51,529 nt of DNA, from the NCBI GenBank assembly GCA_016209325.1, contig JACQWJ010000036.1, positions 1 to 51,529 on the forward strand, written 5' to 3'. This stretch comes from Candidatus Uhrbacteria bacterium (GTDB lineage Bacteria > Patescibacteriota > Patescibacteriia > UBA9934 > GWF2-40-263). The notes beneath the pieces are model-generated. The model saw nothing but the letters and a program-made list of their open reading frames with translations, did not search any database and was not told the DNA's origin. Shown in pieces: positions 4,491-47,856 of the stretch (position 1 is the stretch's first letter; every line of letters begins with the position of its first letter). Made by a program: the position numbers and the translations under genes.

Positions 4491-4554
4491 GAATCGACGG
4501 GGAAAAGGGGAAGCAAGAGGTGTAAGGGGCGTAGGGGGACGGTTGGGGATTCAA

Positions 4555-4650
4555 ATGTCGAATCTGGCATGCCTACTGGCAGGCAGGCGAATAGGCGAAT
4601 GTGGGTTGGGTGGGACAAGGGGTAAGATCCTTCCCGAGGCGGTCAGGATG
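4555..4650 (+). repeat. partial copy (A) of the GGCGAATAGGCGAATGTGG palindromic repeat family
   Basis: GGCGAATAGGCGAATGTGGGTTGGGTGG (4586-4613) is identical to 5243-5270. Flanked by the CTGGCAGGCAGG motif. Confidence 0.6.
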
Positions 4651-4679: not shown

Positions 4680-4904
4680 TTAGGAAAGATGAACTTGCAG
4701 GACTTCCAAAGACACTCCGATGTCATCCAGGATACCTCGAAGGGTACCAAGAGGGATTTCTTTTGAGTGCATCGGAATGACGGCCATACGGCCGTCGGTG
4801 TGGCGGTAAATCGCATGGCTTCCGCGTTGCCTGACCAATGCAAAACCGAGACACTGAAGCGCGGATGCCAGCTGTCTCGGCTTGATGAGCGGTGGCTTAG
4901 GCAC
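4680..4904 (-). CDS. hicA: type II toxin HicA (mRNA interferase)
   Basis: (V)PKPPLIKPRQLASALQCLGFALVRQRGSHAIYRH... is a classic HicA N-terminus with the GSH motif. GTG start at 4904 overlaps the hicB stop by 8 nt. Confidence 0.8.
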   Translation of the reverse strand: MPKPPLIKPRQLASALQCLGFALVRQRGSHAIYRHTDGRMAVIPMHSKEIPLGTLRGILDDIGVSLEVLQVHLS

Positions 4905-5151
4905 GCTTCTTTGCGGGGACGCGGGGCCGTTCCATGGATACGGTGTGGAACGTCTCGAAGCTTTCGTCACGGGGGATGGCGTCCCCCCGGTCGTTCAAGA
5001 CTTCCAAGTAGAGCTCCATGGCTTCCTGGACATGGACGCGCGCCTGCGTAATGGTCTTGCCAACGGTATGGCAACCAGGCAGGGCTGGGACGTAGGCATG
5101 AAAGTGCTTGCCGTCCGGCTCGATGATAACGCGGTAGGTGTATTGATTCAT
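4897..5151 (-). CDS. hicB: type II antitoxin HicB (UPF0150 family)
   Basis: MNQYTYRVIIEPDGKHFHAYVPALPGCHTVGKTITQARVHVQEAMELYLE... is the hallmark HicB fold sequence. Only the last 84 codons of the 271-aa track ORF are plausible. Confidence 0.8.
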   Translation of the reverse strand: MNQYTYRVIIEPDGKHFHAYVPALPGCHTVGKTITQARVHVQEAMELYLEVLNDRGDAIPRDESFETFHTVSMERPRVPAKKRA

Positions 5152-5210: not shown

Positions 5211-5372
5211 TGAGCGATTGGGGGTCCGAATGGCGAATCGTGGCGAATAGGCGAATGTGGGTTGGGTGGTTGGATTTTGTTGTAGAGAGGGGTAACCCCT
5301 CCTTAGTCCTCCCCTCAGGCGAGGGGAGGAAATACGATTCCAGATTCGTCATTTGCTTCCAGGCAGTTTTTG
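5211..5372 (+). repeat. full MITE-like copy (B) of the palindromic repeat family
   Basis: Left arm is CGAAT-rich (GAATGGCGAATCGTGGCGAATAGGCGAATGTGG). Central hairpins are GAGGGGtaaCCCCTC and CCTCCCCTCaggcGAGGGGAGG. Right arm is ACGATTCCAGATTCGTCATTTGCTTCCAGGCAGTTT. Confidence 0.65.
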
Positions 5373-6870: not shown

Positions 6871-6985
6871 TTGAGAGCGATTGGGGGGCCGAAAAACGAA
6901 TCATGGCGAATAGGCGAATGTGGATTGGGGTGGTTGGGAAGGTGTGACCCCTCCTTAGTTCTCCCCTCGGGGGAGGGGAGGAAAA
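6871..6985 (+). repeat. copy (C) of the palindromic repeat family
   Basis: TGAGAGCGATTGGGGGG...GGCGAATAGGCGAATGTGG...CCCCTCCTTAGTTCTCCCCTCGGGGGAGGGGAGG. Ends 5 nt from the dnaE stop codon. Confidence 0.65.
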
Positions 6986-9900: not shown

Positions 9901-10629
9901 CTTCCCTCCCTGCACGCACTGAAGAATCTTCCAGGCCTCGGCCTCGTCGGGCTTCAGGTAGAAGGCGTTCTTGGTCGCGACGACGGGCACGCCGAGCTCC
10001 TTCCCAAGCTCGATCAGCTGCGCGTTCACGGCCGCCTGCTCGGGAATCTCGGGGCGGTCGACAAGCTCAAGGTAGAAGTTTCCCTCGCCGAAAATCTGGC
10101 GGTACTCGCCGATGAGCGCGACTGCGTGCTCGCGGTTCCCCATCTGGAGGGCCTGGTCGATGTCGCCGAAACGTCCGCCCGACAAGGCGATGAGGCCGTG
10201 GGACTTCCCAAGACAAAACTCCCGCAGGAGCTCTTTGTCGATGCGTGGCTTGTAGTAGAAGCCCTCGAGAAATCCGAGGGACGAAAGGCGGACGAGGGTA
10301 CGATACCCGTCGTTGTTCTCCGCGAGGAGCACCAGGCGGTTCGGCTTCGTGTCGATGCGCGCGCGCTTCTGGTGCCGCCCAGCCGGAGCCACATAGGCGT
10401 CCATGCCGACAATGAGCTTCACACCCTCGTCCTGCGCCTTCTGGTAGGCCTCGATGACCCCGTACAGCGTGCCGTTGTCGGTGAGGGCAAAGGTGTCCAT
10501 CCCCTTCTCCTTGGTCGCCTTAATAAGCGCCTTCACCTTGGGAAGCGCCTCGAGCAACGAGTAGTGACTATGGACATGCAGGTGGACAAAGCGACTGAAA
10601 GGCATAGGAAAAGGGGGAAAAGAGACCAC
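6991..10629 (-). CDS. dnaE: DNA polymerase III alpha subunit
   Basis: PHP motif HLHVHSHYSLLEA at the N-terminus and the usual DnaE core along the length. Start is either GTG 10629 or ATG 10605. Has an unusual P/A-rich linker and extra C-terminal module. Confidence 0.93.
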   Translation of the reverse strand: MVSFPPFPMPFSRFVHLHVHSHYSLLEALPKVKALIKATKEKGMDTFALTDNGTLYGVIEAYQKAQDEGVKLIVGMDAYVAPAGRHQKRARIDTKPNRLVLLAENNDGYRTLVRLSSLGFLEGFYYKPRIDKELLREFCLGKSHGLIALSGGRFGDIDQALQMGNREHAVALIGEYRQIFGEGNFYLELVDRPEIPEQAAVNAQLIELGKELGVPVVATKNAFYLKPDEAEAWKILQCVQGGKTLEQFERLQAYDYDASFVSPQEMEEQFKDVPEAIENTRVIADRCNVTFELGKWNFAHFEVPDGLTHLEYLRQRAYAELARKVPELTEEMRQRIDYELSVIEVKGFAPYFLIVSDYIEWARKNGIVTTTRGSAAGSLVSYAIGISSVDPLRYKLPFERFLNPERPSAPDVDADFADNRRDEMLAYVTEKYGKDKVAQICTFGTMMARGSIRDVGRALGIPYGFVDQIAKLVPMGSQGFPMTLERALEEAEDLKKQYDADPQVKRLIDLARRIEGCARHVSIHAAGVVISPEPLTEFTPLQVETKEGKVITQYEMKSVEAAGLLKMDFLGIRNLSILGDAVKILKHIKDLDIDLERIPVDDPKTFELLAKGYTMGTFQLNGDGMTKYLMELRPERIEDIMAMVALYRPGPIESIPEYIRRKHDPSLVSYLDPRMKEFLESSYGVIVYQEDVMFIAIKMAGYSWLEADKLRKAMGKKIPEEMQKQKDKLIDGLVAGGLSASKSKELWKLIEPFAAYGFGKAHAASYGMIAYYTAYLKANYPAEYMSALMTAESGDLDTVADAVKECERLGIKVLPPDVNESLSTFTYIDDQTIRFGLLVIKNLGEEVIQAIIAEREARGPFIDLTDFAERVHHRAFNKKSLEALAKSGALDRFGERRQLLDNVDQILLFNRQAQQQSSQNQSSLFDLAPALVQEKLRLRPASAAAKRGELLGWEKEVLGLYVSAHPYHAVAPRLASFVISLADAVASPEGAVVRCGGLVSSVKKIVTKKGDSMAFVELEDGRTKTEVVCFPKVFLSSQDFLLPERVVIVGAKVSRREGEEPKLLANYFLLVDEDNVDQALAWLRMDGGGQAASAPADPTPPPAHAASVPPATPPDAAAGSPSAPLPSAAVPASAPPLLGLEIVLVGKPAHDLVEQLRSLFTSAPGPERVCFILESQGKPRRVQTDYAVAVSDAFLDALASLVGRQHVRWVKG

Positions 10630-10650
10630 GGCGGATCTCTTTTTTGCTTC

Positions 10651-10953
10651 CTAGGATACTTTGTCTTCCACATCGCCGGACTTGTGGTCGCGCTTCTTCT
10701 CGACCGCGTACTCGACCACCCGCTTGACGCCCTCGGCCAGGATGCCGATGCCGGAGGTGGCCTTCTCGAAGCGGCCCTTGATGGAGGTGAGGGCTTCCTC
10801 GATGCGGCCGATCTTCTCGCGGGCGTCGGCCATGGTCTCGTTGACGTTCTTCAGGATCATGGCGATCTGCCAGATGAGCCAGCAGACGAAGGCGGTGAAC
10901 CAGAGCGCGCAGAAGGCGAGGACGATGAAGAGGATATCTTTTGATTCGAACAT
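10651..10953 (-). CDS. small N-terminally anchored coiled-coil membrane protein (DUF948-like?)
   Basis: 100 aa. One TM (ILFIVLAFCALWFTAFVCWLIW) followed by a helical, charged segment. Confidence 0.5.
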   Translation of the reverse strand: MFESKDILFIVLAFCALWFTAFVCWLIWQIAMILKNVNETMADAREKIGRIEEALTSIKGRFEKATSGIGILAEGVKRVVEYAVEKKRDHKSGDVEDKVS

Positions 10954-10957
10954 ACAG

Positions 10958-11489
10958 AGAGACGATTGAGGAGCGAATTACGAATCCGGACGAATATGCG
11001 AATGTGGACGGATTTCCCCTCCTTCCCTAAGGAGGGGACTAAGGGGAGGTCACTTCTTACAAGCGTTTCCAATGGCTTCCAAGACTCCCTCCAAGTTATC
11101 AAAAACATCACGATTGGAAAACCGAATGACTTGGAGACCGACGGAGGCGAGGTACTCCGACCGACGCTGGTCATACGCTTCGGCCTCTGGCGTCCCGTGC
11201 GCATTTCCGTCAAGCTCTACGACCACTCTCGTTGCAGGACAGTAAAATCAACGATGTAGGGACCGATGCCTTGCTGACGACGGAATTTATATCCCATCTG
11301 CTTACCCTTCAGATGATTCCAAAGAACGACCTCGGCAGGAGTCATTTCATTTCTCAACGCGCGACGCCGGGAAAGGTTAATCGGATCGTTGAAGAGGACT
11401 CCCATAGGTGTGACCTCCCCTTAATCCCCTCCTTGAGGAAGGAGGGGAGATATGACCATGTTCGGCATTCGGACCCCCAATCGCTCTCA
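10958..11489. mobile_element. DUF559 endonuclease gene bracketed by inverted copies (D, E) of the palindromic repeat
   Basis: Inner ends: CCCCTCCTTCCCTAAGGAGGGGACTAAGGGGAGGTCA (11016-11052) versus the reverse complement of 11411-11447, CCCCTCCTTCCTCAAGGAGGGGATTAAGGGGAGGTCA. The outer arms are CGAAT-rich on both sides. Confidence 0.6.
11050..11405 (-). pseudogene. DUF559 (Vsr-like) endonuclease-domain gene with a -1 frameshift in a T-run
   Basis: Frame A: ...ALRNEMTPAEVVLWNHLKGKQMGYKFRRQQGIGPYIVDF. After the run at 11244-11247 (4 T where 5 would keep frame) the other frame reads PATRVVVELDGNAHGTPEAEAYDQRRSEYLASVGLQVIRFSNRDVF...*. Could be a homopolymer assembly error. Confidence 0.7.
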
Positions 11490-13946
11490 TCTCATCGTAG
11501 CAGAAAAACGGGCGGTCAACACCTGACGCAGGGATTCCATACAGGCGTCTACTTCCTCGGACGACAGGGTCTGATCGTCGGCCCGGAACTCCAGGTGGAG
11601 CGCGAGGGATTTCTTGCCCTCCGGAATTCCCTTCCCCGCGTACGTGTCGAACAGCTCGACATCGACCAAAAGGGGTGCGGCGGCATGCATGGCGAGCTCG
11701 AGATCCGTGTAGGTGACGTCCTTATTGACGACGAACGCAAGATCCCGCTTGACTGAAGGGAACGGCGGAATCGGATGGTAGGTCAGTTCCCGCGCCGGAA
11801 AGGCGGCAAGCAACGATAGGTTTACCTCGCCAACAGCAACCTTGGCCTCGATACCGAGGTCTGTGGCCCGTTGCGGTAATACTTCTGCGAGGTAACCTAC
11901 CGCTTCGCCATCCACAGTAATCGCGGCGCTACGTCCAGGATGCATCCAAGACGCAAGGTCAGACATGGGGAGGAAGGTTGGGGTGTATCCCAACGCACGG
12001 AGCGCGCCCGCGCACAGACGTTTCAGTTCACGGAACGGAAAGATGTCGCCCTTCTTCGCGAAGACGAGTCCGAGTACATGGTCTTGATGAGGAAGCGGCG
12101 ATCCTCCTTCCCCGTTTTCGTCACCAGGAATTTCAGGAACGTACGTACGAGCCACCTCGAACAGGCGAACCGTGTCCGTTTGTCGTTGATTCTTTTCGAC
12201 GTTCTCGAGTAAGTTCGGCACAAGCGTCCGGGCAACATACGGCCGCTCTTTGGAAATAGGATTGGCTAATTGAATGTACCGCGCGGCGTCTTCCCCCAAA
12301 TAGGCAAGCGTGGCAGGACTCGTAAAACTATAATTATACGTTTCGGTTGCCGCGAAACGTTCGGCGAGAATCGAACGCACACGCCGTTCCAGTACCCGCA
12401 TGGGATCCGGTGTGGGCGGCCTGAGGTCCATGCGTGGGAGCGTAGGGGGTATACGCTCATAGCCGTAAATACGCGCCACTTCTTCAACGAGATCCTCGAA
12501 AATCGAAATATCCTTGGTCGCACGCCAACTCGGAATGGTTACAAGATATGCTTCTCCGTCCTGTTTCAAGCCGAATCCCAACCGCTCAAGGATGCCGATG
12601 GCGGTATCAACGGGAATGTTCACACCCAATTTCTGATCCAGACGTTCCAAAGAAAATGGAATCGGACCCTGTTTCAGCTCAAACCGACCGACATCCACGA
12701 CGGGCGAGGCGACCCGCGCGCCCGGAACAAGTTCTAACAGGAGTTCTACCGCACGACGCAGGGCCAGGTCGGACAGATTCGGATCTAGTCCTTTTTCATA
12801 CCGCAAGGATGCTTCGGAACGCAGTCCCAAACGTTGGGATGTTTTACGGATCCAAGAAGGGTGAAAATTTGCGGATTCCAAAAATACGGTCGTGGTTTCC
12901 TCACCGATTTCGCTGTTGTGCCCACCCATAACCCCCGCCAAGGCCACAGCCTTCTTTGCGTCCCGGATGACGAGATCGGACGGACCGAGTTCCCGCTCGG
13001 TATCATCGAGGGTCACGAACCGCTCGCCGGACACAGCGGGACGGACCTCGATCTCGATCGTGCGCGGCTTACTCAACACGTTCTCCAACTTGGCGGCATC
13101 AAAGGCATGGAGTGACTGCCCAATTTCCAGCATCACATAATTTGTCACGTCAACAACAATGTTGACAGGGCGCACACCTACGGCCCGCAGACGTTTTTGC
13201 ATCCACTCCGGAGACGTTTCGATGCGGATGCCGTCGAGGACAACACCCATGTAACGCGGGCAGGCAGCAATGTCGGTTACGTTCACCAATACCTCATACT
13301 CCGTTTCCTCTGAAACAACGGGCGGCCGTCGGTCCTTGAAGGTCGTCCCAAGGAGTGCCCCAACCTCGCGTCCCATGCCACGATGGCTGAAGAGGTCCGG
13401 ACGGTTGGTGAGTGATTTGTTGTCCACGTCAAATACGACATCGTCGAGTCCCAAGACTTCCGCAAGCGGCGTGCCTGGCGGGGCATCCCATCCGCTAAGG
13501 TCGACGATTTCGCGCTCACCTTCGTTTCCAGTGGCTGTGCCGATCTCGTTGGCTGCACAAATCATACCGAACGACTCAACGTCGCGCAGCTTTGTCAATT
13601 TGATTTCAACTAGCTCCCCTTCCCCGTGCCATTTGACCCTAGCCCCCACCAGGGCAACCGCGACCTTCATGCCCGCCAAAAGATTCGTGCCGCCGCATAC
13701 TATTTGCAACGGTTCCCCTTGTCCCGCATCCACCCGGCATACGCGGAGCTTGTCCGCATTGGGATGCGCTTCAACCGCAAGAAGGACGCCCACCACGATC
13801 CGTTCCAACGGGGCGGCCTGGGACGAAATTTCTTCCACCTCCACCGTGCTCAAGGTAATACGACGGGCGAGTTCCTCGTCGGACAGGTCTTCGGGAAGCT
13901 CGACAAATTCTTGGAGCCACTTCTTGGAAACCAACATACCATCCAT
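11487..13946 (-). CDS. pheT: phenylalanine--tRNA ligase beta subunit
   Basis: 819 aa with tRNA-binding N-terminal domain, B3/4, B5 and C-terminal FDX-ACB-like regions. Immediately follows pheS. Confidence 0.93.
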   Translation of the reverse strand: MDGMLVSKKWLQEFVELPEDLSDEELARRITLSTVEVEEISSQAAPLERIVVGVLLAVEAHPNADKLRVCRVDAGQGEPLQIVCGGTNLLAGMKVAVALVGARVKWHGEGELVEIKLTKLRDVESFGMICAANEIGTATGNEGEREIVDLSGWDAPPGTPLAEVLGLDDVVFDVDNKSLTNRPDLFSHRGMGREVGALLGTTFKDRRPPVVSEETEYEVLVNVTDIAACPRYMGVVLDGIRIETSPEWMQKRLRAVGVRPVNIVVDVTNYVMLEIGQSLHAFDAAKLENVLSKPRTIEIEVRPAVSGERFVTLDDTERELGPSDLVIRDAKKAVALAGVMGGHNSEIGEETTTVFLESANFHPSWIRKTSQRLGLRSEASLRYEKGLDPNLSDLALRRAVELLLELVPGARVASPVVDVGRFELKQGPIPFSLERLDQKLGVNIPVDTAIGILERLGFGLKQDGEAYLVTIPSWRATKDISIFEDLVEEVARIYGYERIPPTLPRMDLRPPTPDPMRVLERRVRSILAERFAATETYNYSFTSPATLAYLGEDAARYIQLANPISKERPYVARTLVPNLLENVEKNQRQTDTVRLFEVARTYVPEIPGDENGEGGSPLPHQDHVLGLVFAKKGDIFPFRELKRLCAGALRALGYTPTFLPMSDLASWMHPGRSAAITVDGEAVGYLAEVLPQRATDLGIEAKVAVGEVNLSLLAAFPARELTYHPIPPFPSVKRDLAFVVNKDVTYTDLELAMHAAAPLLVDVELFDTYAGKGIPEGKKSLALHLEFRADDQTLSSEEVDACMESLRQVLTARFSATMR

Positions 13947-27635: not shown

Positions 27636-27790
27636 GGAAACTGCCTGTCTGGGAATTGCCAAAACGAATATGGATCGGAAACGTTTTCCCCTCCTTCCCC
27701 AAGGCTCGCCCGTTGGGCTACGCCCAACGGGAGGGGATGAAAGGGGAGGAGATACGATACAAATTCGTATTTCGTCTCCAGGCAGTTTCC
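27636..27790. mobile_element. 155-bp MITE-like element (copy F) with perfect 12-bp terminal inverted repeats
   Basis: GGAAACTGCCTG (27636-47) and CAGGCAGTTTCC (27779-90). Sub-terminal arms ACGAATATGGATCG / CGATACAAATTCGT. Central CCCCTCC...GGAGGGG and CCGTTGGGCtaCGCCCAACGG hairpins. Ends 3 nt from the recG stop. Confidence 0.7.
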
Positions 27791-46602: not shown

Positions 46603-47856
46603 CTATTCGATAATCCCCCCGCCGATCATTTCCTCGCCGTTGTAGAAGACGACTGATTGGCCCGGGGTGATGGCGCGCTGGGGTTGGGTGAAGGTGACGT
46701 GAACAGAAGACGCAGGACCCCCTCCTGTCTCCCCCTTCGTAAGGGGGAGAGAACTCGACGGGAACCCCTCGCCGGCAACCTCCCCTAGCCCCTCCTTGGC
46801 AAGGAGGGGGATCGAGACGGTGCACGGCTGGAGCTGCTGGCGGTAACGGACACGGGCTTGGTAGGTCTTCCCTTCCTCCGGCGCTTGGAACCAGTTGCAT
46901 TCGGTAGCAGTCAATTCTGTTTTAAACAGGACTTGGTGGAAATTGCTGGAGACGACAAGTTGGTTCATCTTTGCGCGCTTTTCGACGACGTAATAGGGCT
47001 GCGGCTGGCCGCCGATGTTCAGGCCCTCGCGCTGGCCGATGGTGTAAAACGCGATGCCCTCGTGCCGGCCGACGACCGCGCCATCGGTCGTAACGATGTC
47101 GCCCGGATTCTTCGGGATGCGCGCCTGCAGGAATGAACGGATGTCGACTTCGCCCACGAAGCAGATGCCCGTACTGTCCTTCTTGTCCGCAACCAGCAGG
47201 CCGAGGGCGTGGGCCTTCTCGCGGACCTGCGGCTTGGTCAAATGACCGATCGGAAACAGGACGCGCGAAAGGACGGCCGACGGAACGGCCCAGAGGAAAT
47301 AGGTCTGGTCCTTGTTCACGTCCGTGCCTGCGAGAATACGGTACGGCTCGGGAGATTGCTTCGTCCCACGCCGTGCAGGCCAAGGGCCAGCACCGGCAGG
47401 TCCTCGCAAAGACGAAGAGGACACAATTCGGGCGTAATGCCCTGTCGCGACGAATGCGCAACCGAGCTTGTCCGCCTCCTTTACGAACAGGTCGAACTTC
47501 ACGAAGCGGTTGCACATAACGTCCGGGTTCGGTGTCCGCCCTGCGGCGTATTCGCGAAACATGGCGTCGACGACGTCGCGGCGATACTGTTCCTCAAAGT
47601 CGAACGTCAAAAACGGGATGCTGAGCTGGGCTGCGACGCGCATGGCGTCCCTGCGCTCCTGCCTCCACCCGCACTCGGAAAACCCCTCTCCAACCTTGTC
47701 CGGATCGACACACTGGGGGCCCTCGACGTCTCCCGACCAGTTCTTCATGAACGCCCCGATCACCTCGTACCCCTGTTCCAACAACAACGCCGCGGACACC
47801 GACGAATCGACGCCGCCCGACATGCCGACGAGAACTTTTGGTTTCATGCCTGTCAT
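46603..47856 (-). CDS. mnmA: tRNA 2-thiouridine(34) synthase MnmA, carrying two repeat-derived in-frame insertions
   Basis: PP-loop VGMSGGVDSS, TGHYAR, KDQTYFL, C-terminal PQRAITPGQSVVFY. Confidence 0.9.
   Translation of the reverse strand: MTGMKPKVLVGMSGGVDSSVSAALLLEQGYEVIGAFMKNWSGDVEGPQCVDPDKVGEGFSECGWRQERRDAMRVAAQLSIPFLTFDFEEQYRRDVVDAMFREYAAGRTPNPDVMCNRFVKFDLFVKEADKLGCAFVATGHYARIVSSSSLRGPAGAGPWPARRGTKQSPEPYRILAGTDVNKDQTYFLWAVPSAVLSRVLFPIGHLTKPQVREKAHALGLLVADKKDSTGICFVGEVDIRSFLQARIPKNPGDIVTTDGAVVGRHEGIAFYTIGQREGLNIGGQPQPYYVVEKRAKMNQLVVSSNFHQVLFKTELTATECNWFQAPEEGKTYQARVRYRQQLQPCTVSIPLLAKEGLGEVAGEGFPSSSLPLTKGETGGGPASSVHVTFTQPQRAITPGQSVVFYNGEEMIGGGIIE
46708..46812. repeat. CCCCTCC...GGAGGGG palindromic repeat copy (G) inside mnmA, in frame
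   Basis: CCCCTCCTTGGCAAGGAGGGGG and CTCCCCCTTCGTAAGGGGGAG hairpins. Translated as IPLLAKEGLGEVAGEGFPSSSLPLTKGETGGGPAS. Confidence 0.65.
47352..47415. repeat. second repeat family (TTGCGAGGA...GAAGCAATC) inside mnmA, in frame
   Basis: Minus strand TCGTCTTTGCGAGGACCTGCCGG...GGGACGAAGCAATCTC, translated as SSLRGPAGAGPWPARRGTKQS. Its termini resemble the copy at 51329-51389. Confidence 0.55.

Follow-up and report, generated by a model that had tools for sequence, protein, structure and literature searches.

The window, a 51,529-nucleotide stretch of DNA from a Candidatus Uhrbacteria bacterium that we analysed as a whole, contains a segment between pheT and a DUF948 gene in which a broken gene of the DUF559 family lies between two inverted repeat arms. 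Each arm has an inner part built of three blocks and an outer part, and the segment is laid out as follows.

10954-11486, no strand assigned: the whole inserted segment, filling the interval from the pheT stop codon (11487-11489) to the DUF948 start codon (10951-10953)
10958-11015, plus strand: the CGAAT-rich outer part (O) of the left arm, with terminus GAGAGACGATTGAGG; it aligns with the outer ends of the repeat copies B and C described below
11016-11053, plus strand: inner part of the left arm, a three-block motif of triplex type that contains the DUF559 stop codon; pyrimidine block CCCCTCCTT at 11016-11024, purine block AAGGAGGGG at 11029-11037, mirror block GGGGAGGT at 11043-11050, then a GGTCAC end
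11050-11405, minus strand: DUF559 (PF04480) pseudogene, Vsr-fold PD-(D/E)xK, with a 1-nt frameshift at 11244-11247
11410-11447, minus strand: the three-block motif again, inverted, as the inner part of the right arm, with its third block at 11413-11420, the pyrimidine block at 11426-11434 and the purine block at 11439-11447
11448-11489, minus strand: outer part of the right arm (O'), with terminus ...ACCCCCAATCGCTCTCA and the pheT stop codon inside it

The initial annotation of this DNA had described the arms as inverted, with near-identical inner parts that end at the DUF559 stop codon and just past its start, and both points are borne out. A repeat search pairs 10999-11053 with 11410-11464 (55 nt, 84% complementary without gaps, 356 nt apart), a gapped alignment extends the match to about 88 nt (about 10966-11053 against 11410-11489), and by BLAST the inner 39 nt of the arms are identical at 36/39 positions (92%). 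The DUF559 stop codon (11050-11052) falls within the GGTCAC end of the left arm, and the right arm begins at 11410, 4 nt past the start codon (11403-11405), its third block placing a GGAGG 8 nt before the ATG on the gene strand. The outer layer of the arms is CGAAT-rich and has the terminus GAGAGCGATTGGGGG; the pheT stop codon sits in the TGAGAGCG terminus of the right outer arm, and this arm matches the left end of copy B with 96% identity over 26 nt.

The inner arms have a distinctive design. The window has three instances of the hairpin CCCCTCCTT-N4-AAGGAGGGG, where 100 shuffles gave none (expectation 0.00), and the third block GGGGAGGT, which follows a 5-nt loop, reads as the mirror image of the purine block. 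Aligned as CCCCTCCTT / AAGGAGGGG / GGGGAGGT, the three blocks give 8/9 allowed triplets (G.G, A.A or T.A) in both arms. As single-stranded DNA the inner arm is predicted to form a 10-bp hairpin, the prediction being of a Watson-Crick hairpin and not of a triplex.

Judged by this three-block design, the inner arms are the published BoxC/PIT/TM motif (TM, intrastrand triplex motif). Both consist of a pyrimidine block, its purine complement and a mirror-image G/A or G/T block, and both are rich in G/C, measure about 35 nt and occur in many copies, mostly between genes and often as inverted pairs of two subtypes; the E. coli form CCCTCGCCCCTC-TG-GGGAGAGGG-TTA-GGGTGAGGGG corresponds to CCCCTCCTT-ccct-AAGGAGGGG-actaa-GGGGAGGT in the window. 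They differ in that the window motif caps a DUF559 gene, sits in longer CGAAT-rich arms and belongs to a genome of the candidate phyla radiation (Uhrbacteria-like). The BoxC/PIT/TMECO repeats have been reported to have no associated gene or mobile element, and in E. coli the TM loci are hot-spots of rearrangement (Holder et al. 2015, PMC4666352; earlier work by Bergler 1992, Bachellier, and Hoyne and Maher 2000 is cited there). At the outset the relationship between gene and repeat had been taken to be undescribed; this stands for the DUF559 link, as our literature search found no paper connecting the DUF559/ycjD family with BoxC/PIT/TM repeats, and it does not stand for the repeat itself (PMC4666352).

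The gene between the arms is recognisable over its full length. Its two minus-strand ORF halves, at 11217-11405 and 11050-11226, match positions 6-52 and 55-108 of the 109 in Pfam DUF559 (E-values 2.9e-12 and 2.4e-13), the only other Pfam families matched by these halves being MTES_1575 and DUF2726. Reading through the break yields a 118-aa product that matches a solved structure, PDB 3HRL, with an E-value of 5.3e-21; it keeps the family-invariant residues at 22/22 columns of a 12-member alignment that includes E. coli YcjD, and with them an acidic/histidine core (D53, E64, D66, H70 and D79 in read-through numbering). The reading frame is broken by one missing base in the T-run at 11244-11247, and the initial annotation was thus correct in its call of a Vsr-like DUF559 ORF with a 1-nt T-run deletion. 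The deletion also withstands the check proposed for this homopolymer, since Logan contigs from four groundwater runs cover the point without gap or difference. Because the contigs of the four runs agree at the T-run, the frameshift is the consensus of the population and not an assembly error specific to the window, as read from assembler contigs of a single study that could hide rare intact variants. The frameshift in the window copy is recent. A programmed ribosomal frameshift was ruled out, the canonical slippery heptamer being absent from the T-run.

We then compared the pheT/DUF948 interval with that of relatives. The gap is 533 bp in the window as against 9-47 nt in related contigs (about 17 nt in L085, 47 nt in L086, 9 nt in L087 and L088, and 45 nt in L089), which were chosen through DUF948 protein homologs of 72-85% identity and are not strains of one species. 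Compared with these four (L085, L086, L087/L088 and L089), the 533-bp segment is an insertion, and the presence of a gene in one genome with a precise empty site in its relatives is the pattern used to recognise homing endonuclease genes. When the junctions are set against the empty sites of L085-L089, the native pheT/DUF948 spacer proves to have been replaced, and no direct repeat of at least 3 nt is found that could be a target-site duplication; none was found at copy F either. Of the two features that had been suggested for inspection, empty sites are accordingly present in relatives, and target-site duplications are lacking at both the cassette and copy F.

A further relative carries other cargo at the same place. 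In L090 the pheT/DUF948 gap (L090:2513-3000) holds a gene for a 130-aa PDDEXK_3 protein (PF13366) between 54-nt CGAAT-rich inverted arms, the downstream one of which, on the DUF948 side, agrees with the outer left arm of the window at about 28/31 bases (about 90%). Because the site is empty in L089, a close relative of L090, the PDDEXK_3 insertion is independent. A second small PD-(D/E)xK family thus occupies the same site as the window DUF559 gene, within the same kind of arms.

Long inverted arms might also serve an invertible switch, in which the 55-nt arms would let the 356-bp gene segment flip, and 'DUF559 domain-containing protein' has an odds ratio of 14.3 among predicted programmed-inversion targets (PMC9881135, table row). 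However, the contigs of the four runs, which hide rare variants, contain no joint on the window for an inverted or excised form of the cassette, no recombinase gene is adjacent, and flipping a whole gene together with its own start and stop would change nothing obvious. We regard a switch as very improbable. An odd joint from 11435 to 11029 in these contigs belongs to another copy of the hairpin and is not a variant of the cassette.

The best homolog of the window gene is intact. This protein, P0001, comes from a source named Candidatus Uhrbacteria and has 82% amino acid identity; its gene lies on short contigs (L001) from the same runs, beside an ABC-transporter gene, and ends, as the window gene does, with a stop codon inside the GTGACCTCCCC...CCCCTCCTT..AAGGAGGG arm. 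The L001 cassette and the window are probably in one genome, because the depth of L001 in the four runs (13/6.7/5-9/10) tracks that of the window (13.5/6/5-9/7-9). Between the two genes pS is 0.77, which is saturated, and pN is 0.11; on these values they are old paralogs whose protein has long been under purifying selection. The non-coding 3' arms are nevertheless identical at 37/42 positions, and the 5' arms, compared only as far as the L001 contig reaches (30 nt upstream of the gene), differ mainly by a GGAGGGG/GGGGAGG swap between the purine and third blocks that preserves the mirror relation. This type-2 variant, with a joint change in all three blocks, is found in L001 and in copies B and C. 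The alignments thus indicate that the arms are conserved beyond neutral expectation, with a constraint that follows the three-block logic. A gene-less contig that joins both L001 arms is a B-type solo copy at another locus and not an empty allele.

Gene and arms recur as a unit far beyond this lineage. A protein-first scan of one genome per species (GTDB), in which the window's own genome is not included, gave 80 loci from Proteobacteria, Bacteroidota, Acidobacteriota, Nitrospirota, Chloroflexota, Patescibacteria and other phyla, among them orthologous sets, so that the loci are not fully independent. When the 160 nt upstream of the gene were compared with the 160 nt downstream, the flanks of 77 loci reached a similarity score of at least 30 in inverted orientation in 47% and in inverted or direct orientation in 56%, against 0-1% of 275 controls at positions shifted by 1.3-1.9 kb. 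The density of CCCYTCC..GGARGGG hairpins is 2-4 per kb per locus up to 200 nt from the gene and 0.02-0.1 beyond 400 nt, and hairpins are not drawn to other genes within the same 5-kb DUF559 loci. The third block faces the gene in 121 cases and faces away in 62, and 82 loci gave 179 mirror blocks as against 72 for a direct-copy control.

These counts bear on the simplest alternative, namely that two solo repeats came independently to flank an unrelated gene. Solo copies are indeed common in the window. However, the same geometry is seen in L001 and in about half of the 77 loci, in other phyla, against about 1% of controls, and both paralogs have their stop codon inside the arm; chance assembly is therefore next to negligible as an explanation. 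The initial annotation had treated gene and arms as one unit and had named two independent solo insertions as the case that would speak against it. The unit recurs, in L001 and at 56% of the 77 loci, and that case is contradicted.

Repeats of the same kind also occur in the window apart from the DUF559 gene, as listed here.

4547-4615, plus strand: partial copy A, which forms an inverted repeat with copy B (4547-4570 / 5337-5360)
5212-5360, plus strand: copy B, in which an outer arm and a spacer are followed by a single hairpin motif of type 2 and a second, degenerate outer arm
6872-6984, plus strand: copy C, 89% identical to B, ending a few bases from the dnaE stop codon
27637-27790, plus strand: copy F, with its own terminal inverted repeats (GGAAACTGCCTG...) round one type-1 motif in left-arm orientation
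46708-46812, minus strand: two hairpin motifs read in frame inside mnmA

The gene-less repeats of this genome are 110-170 bp long and end in the same CGAAT-rich outer arms as the cassette. They share with it the outer termini and the hairpin module, and they are mosaics. The type-2 motif of copies B and C (CCTCCCCTC / GAGGGGAGG / GGAGGGG) is single, in right-arm orientation and has a different spacer. The earlier suggestion that solo copies are the two arms collapsed together is thus too simple, because B, C and F each hold one hairpin only, in right-arm (B, C) or left-arm (F) orientation. Within copy F, a 27-nt GC hairpin, CTCGCCCGTTGGGCTACGCCCAACGGG (27705-27731), is nested in the purine block, one small palindromic element inside another. 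In the mnmA ORF (46603-47856, minus strand), the in-frame motifs separate conserved C-terminal segments by about 35 additional residues (…SIPLLAKEGLGEVAGEGFPSSSLPLTKGETGGGPASS…) and resemble the palindromic elements found inside Rickettsia genes; judged from the translation, extra residues …SSSSLRGPAGAGPWPARRGTKQSPEPY… between HYAR and KDQTYFL (47352-47415) may be a second in-frame repeat insertion.

Copies A and B bracket a hicA/hicB pair (4680-5150; HicA and HicB by Pfam) through the 24-nt inverted repeat 4547-4570 / 5337-5360. Because hicAB in the window and PDDEXK_3 in L090 are bracketed as well, the outer arms are not specific to DUF559, and, with the L089 site empty, they could be general landing or recombination sites. 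This observation speaks for the main rival explanation, in which the nuclease is uninvolved: hairpin and CGAAT repeats would spread or persist by other means (an unseen transposase, replication slippage, or use of RNA/DNA structure by the host) and provide fragile sites where small selfish genes land, the cargo being DUF559, PDDEXK_3, hicAB and possibly GIY-YIG. The age of the paralogs and the rearrangement hot-spots at TM loci in E. coli (PMC4666352) also speak for it.

The repeat was also followed on its own. On 445 kb of metagenome contigs chosen by the hairpin alone, a motif-first scan found 81 hairpins of the window type. A DUF559 gene was present at only 5 loci (4 distinct), always 0-13 nt from the hairpin, and 76/81 hairpins (94%) had no DUF559 gene nearby. 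A DUF559 gene is nearly always accompanied by the repeat and most repeats are gene-less, an asymmetry of the RAYT/REP type; the prevalence of gene-less hairpins counts at the same time in favour of the rival explanation.

In Hymenobacter, Nitrospira and Oceanimonas, the DUF559 gene is syntenic across species, and the motif or an inverted pair of motifs is kept just upstream, often with none downstream. Because the upstream motif is syntenic across species, the pairing of gene and motif is long-lived and largely vertical, and the two-sided layout of the window is one of several forms. At five Hymenobacter loci (L007, L025, L032, L065 and L071), inverted motif pairs with a 50-60-nt spacer, resembling REPIN doublets, lie just upstream of the syntenic DUF559 gene, and at L071 complete doublets flank both sides of the gene.

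A degenerate motif covers the stop codon of ycjD in E. coli K-12, and a canonical TMECO follows about 170 nt downstream. The gene is present in 3378/5426 complete E. coli genomes; about 38% lack it yet keep TMECO copies. The gap between sapF and fabI contains ycjD plus TMECO in K-12 (L092:5163-5242) or, alternatively, an eefRABC efflux island in Nissle (L217:6640-7130), and the common sequence of the two strains resumes about 35 nt beyond the K-12 TMECO. Persistence of TMECO without ycjD, and replacement of ycjD by an efflux-pump island near TMECO, again fit repeats that act as landing sites for passengers.

Four observations count against a mere passenger. Unlike the outer arms, the inner TM arms are tied to DUF559 across phyla, at 0-13 nt and mostly in one orientation; other genes of the same 5-kb loci draw no hairpins; the pairing persists at syntenic loci over genus-level time; and the arms have been conserved while synonymous sites became saturated. 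We consider the passenger explanation somewhat unlikely on this evidence, and it is the main rival to a partnership between nuclease and repeat.

A second alternative assigns the gene a function for the host. DUF559 would then be a repair or structure-processing nuclease, for example one that removes hairpins or triplexes, and the flanking motifs would be cis-regulatory: the 5' motif would supply the ribosome-binding site, and the 5' and 3' arms would pair in the mRNA and so keep down the translation of a potentially harmful nuclease. The position of the third-block GGAGG, 8 nt ahead of the ATG, accords with this, as do the constant position of the TM 5' of the gene in the syntenic Hymenobacter and Nitrospira loci, the strong purifying selection on the protein and the vertical inheritance of the genes at fixed loci. 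However, the segment is an insertion missing from close relatives, the gene can be dispensed with, being frameshifted in the window and missing from 38% of E. coli genomes, copies without a gene are far more numerous than genes, and a promoter/terminator scan of 10600-11900 scored no promoter-like or terminator-like site. A host function or a regulatory role is improbable to us.

Among known systems, the closest analogy is that of REP sequences and their RAYT proteins (Bertels and Rainey 2011, PMC3116915; PMC3337134), with an unrelated enzyme in the present case. There, too, a small enzyme gene lies between inverted hairpin repeats, few gene copies accompany many gene-less repeats, the association is long-lived and largely vertical, and target-site duplications are absent. 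By contrast, RAYT is an HUH/Y1 transposase, similar to that of IS200/IS605, which acts on single-stranded hairpins, whereas DUF559 is a Vsr-fold PD-(D/E)xK nuclease, and the window repeat has three blocks and is not a simple palindrome.

Vsr-like (EDxHD) homing endonucleases such as I-Bth0305I share the Vsr-type fold (PMC3239194; Dassa et al. 2009, PMC2677866), and the window gene resembles them in behaving as a selfish gene whose insertion is polymorphic, relatives having empty sites. Those enzymes, however, reside in introns or between split inteins and have a unique coding target, whereas the window gene has inverted-repeat flanks and a presumably multi-copy target, and no intron or intein features were seen at it. 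Carriage by phages finds little trace: among 2.9 million viral contigs, only 4 DUF559 relatives were found, and 0 of these had hairpin flanks. The cassette also resembles a MITE family with its autonomous parent, in that gene-carrying and short gene-less copies have terminal inverted arms in common. It differs in that it lacks both a target-site duplication and a recognisable transposase, DUF559 being its sole ORF, the gene-less copies are mosaics and not derivatives by internal deletion, and the outer arms carry hicAB and PDDEXK_3 too.

Read from its sequence, then, the window segment is a now-dead DUF559 cassette, capped by TM hairpins and nested in lineage-specific CGAAT-rich outer arms. 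The DUF559 family may be the partner of the BoxC/"triplex-motif" repeats. We know of no nuclease activity, cut site, mobility or transposition chemistry for DUF559 proteins. In the partnership that we propose, the nuclease would recognise and nick the folded TM, both beside its own gene and in copies that lack one; repair of the break, or recombination, would then copy or homogenise the TMs, occasionally together with the gene. Such a partnership would resemble that of REP and RAYT, with an unrelated enzyme and no target-site duplication, and would make the gene-less copies dependants or targets of these nucleases and not deletion products of the window copy. We place the probability that DUF559 recognises and nicks the folded motif, with repair copying or homogenising the repeats and sometimes the gene, at roughly 0.45.

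We favour this partnership because of the anatomy of arms and gene, the empty sites, the intact L001 cassette and the conservation of the arms alongside saturated synonymous sites; because of the flanks at 77 loci, the hairpin density near the gene, the orientation of the third block and the abutment at 0-13 nt; and because the TM is kept upstream in syntenic Hymenobacter and Nitrospira loci and ycjD of E. coli has its motif and TMECO. It is disfavoured because the window copy is frameshifted, target-site duplications are absent and the paralogs are old, with no sign of recent copying; because 76/81 hairpins are gene-less and about 38% of E. coli genomes keep TMECO without ycjD; and because many DUF559 genes are syntenic within a genus with the TM on one side only.

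The initial annotation had read the cassette as a possible autonomous parent of the gene-less repeats. Part of that reading survives, in that the unit recurs, is an insertion, has an intact second cassette and shares its outer termini and hairpin with gene-less copies. Because it is a pseudogene, the window copy is not an active parent; this dead copy lacks a target-site duplication, and the age of the paralogs, the outer arms round hicAB and PDDEXK_3, and the adjacency of only 5/81 hairpins to a DUF559 gene also weigh against the parent role. A wider formulation, rather doubtful at present, is that DUF559 proteins would be the cognate enzymes of BoxC/PIT/TM repeats throughout Bacteria, the candidate phyla radiation included, in a transposase-free system driven by a nuclease and parallel to REP/RAYT, with the Uhrbacteria-like outer arms as a shared chassis for the small nuclease or toxin cargos DUF559, PDDEXK_3 and hicAB.

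To these questions the window adds an example from the candidate phyla radiation with clean empty sites in related contigs, covariation of the three blocks between paralogous cassettes, and outer arms common to other cargo, which constrain the models. To our knowledge, DUF559 is among the largest bacterial protein families without a known function, and for the BoxC/PIT/TM repeats neither an origin nor a protein partner has become known since the 1990s. The recurrent, conserved pairing of the two, together with the insertion polymorphism, gives both puzzles a single test, namely whether DUF559 binds or cuts the motif that flanks it. If it does, this would be a second, independent partnership of an enzyme with a repeat in bacterial genomes, and it would explain the rearrangement hot-spots at triplex-motif loci.
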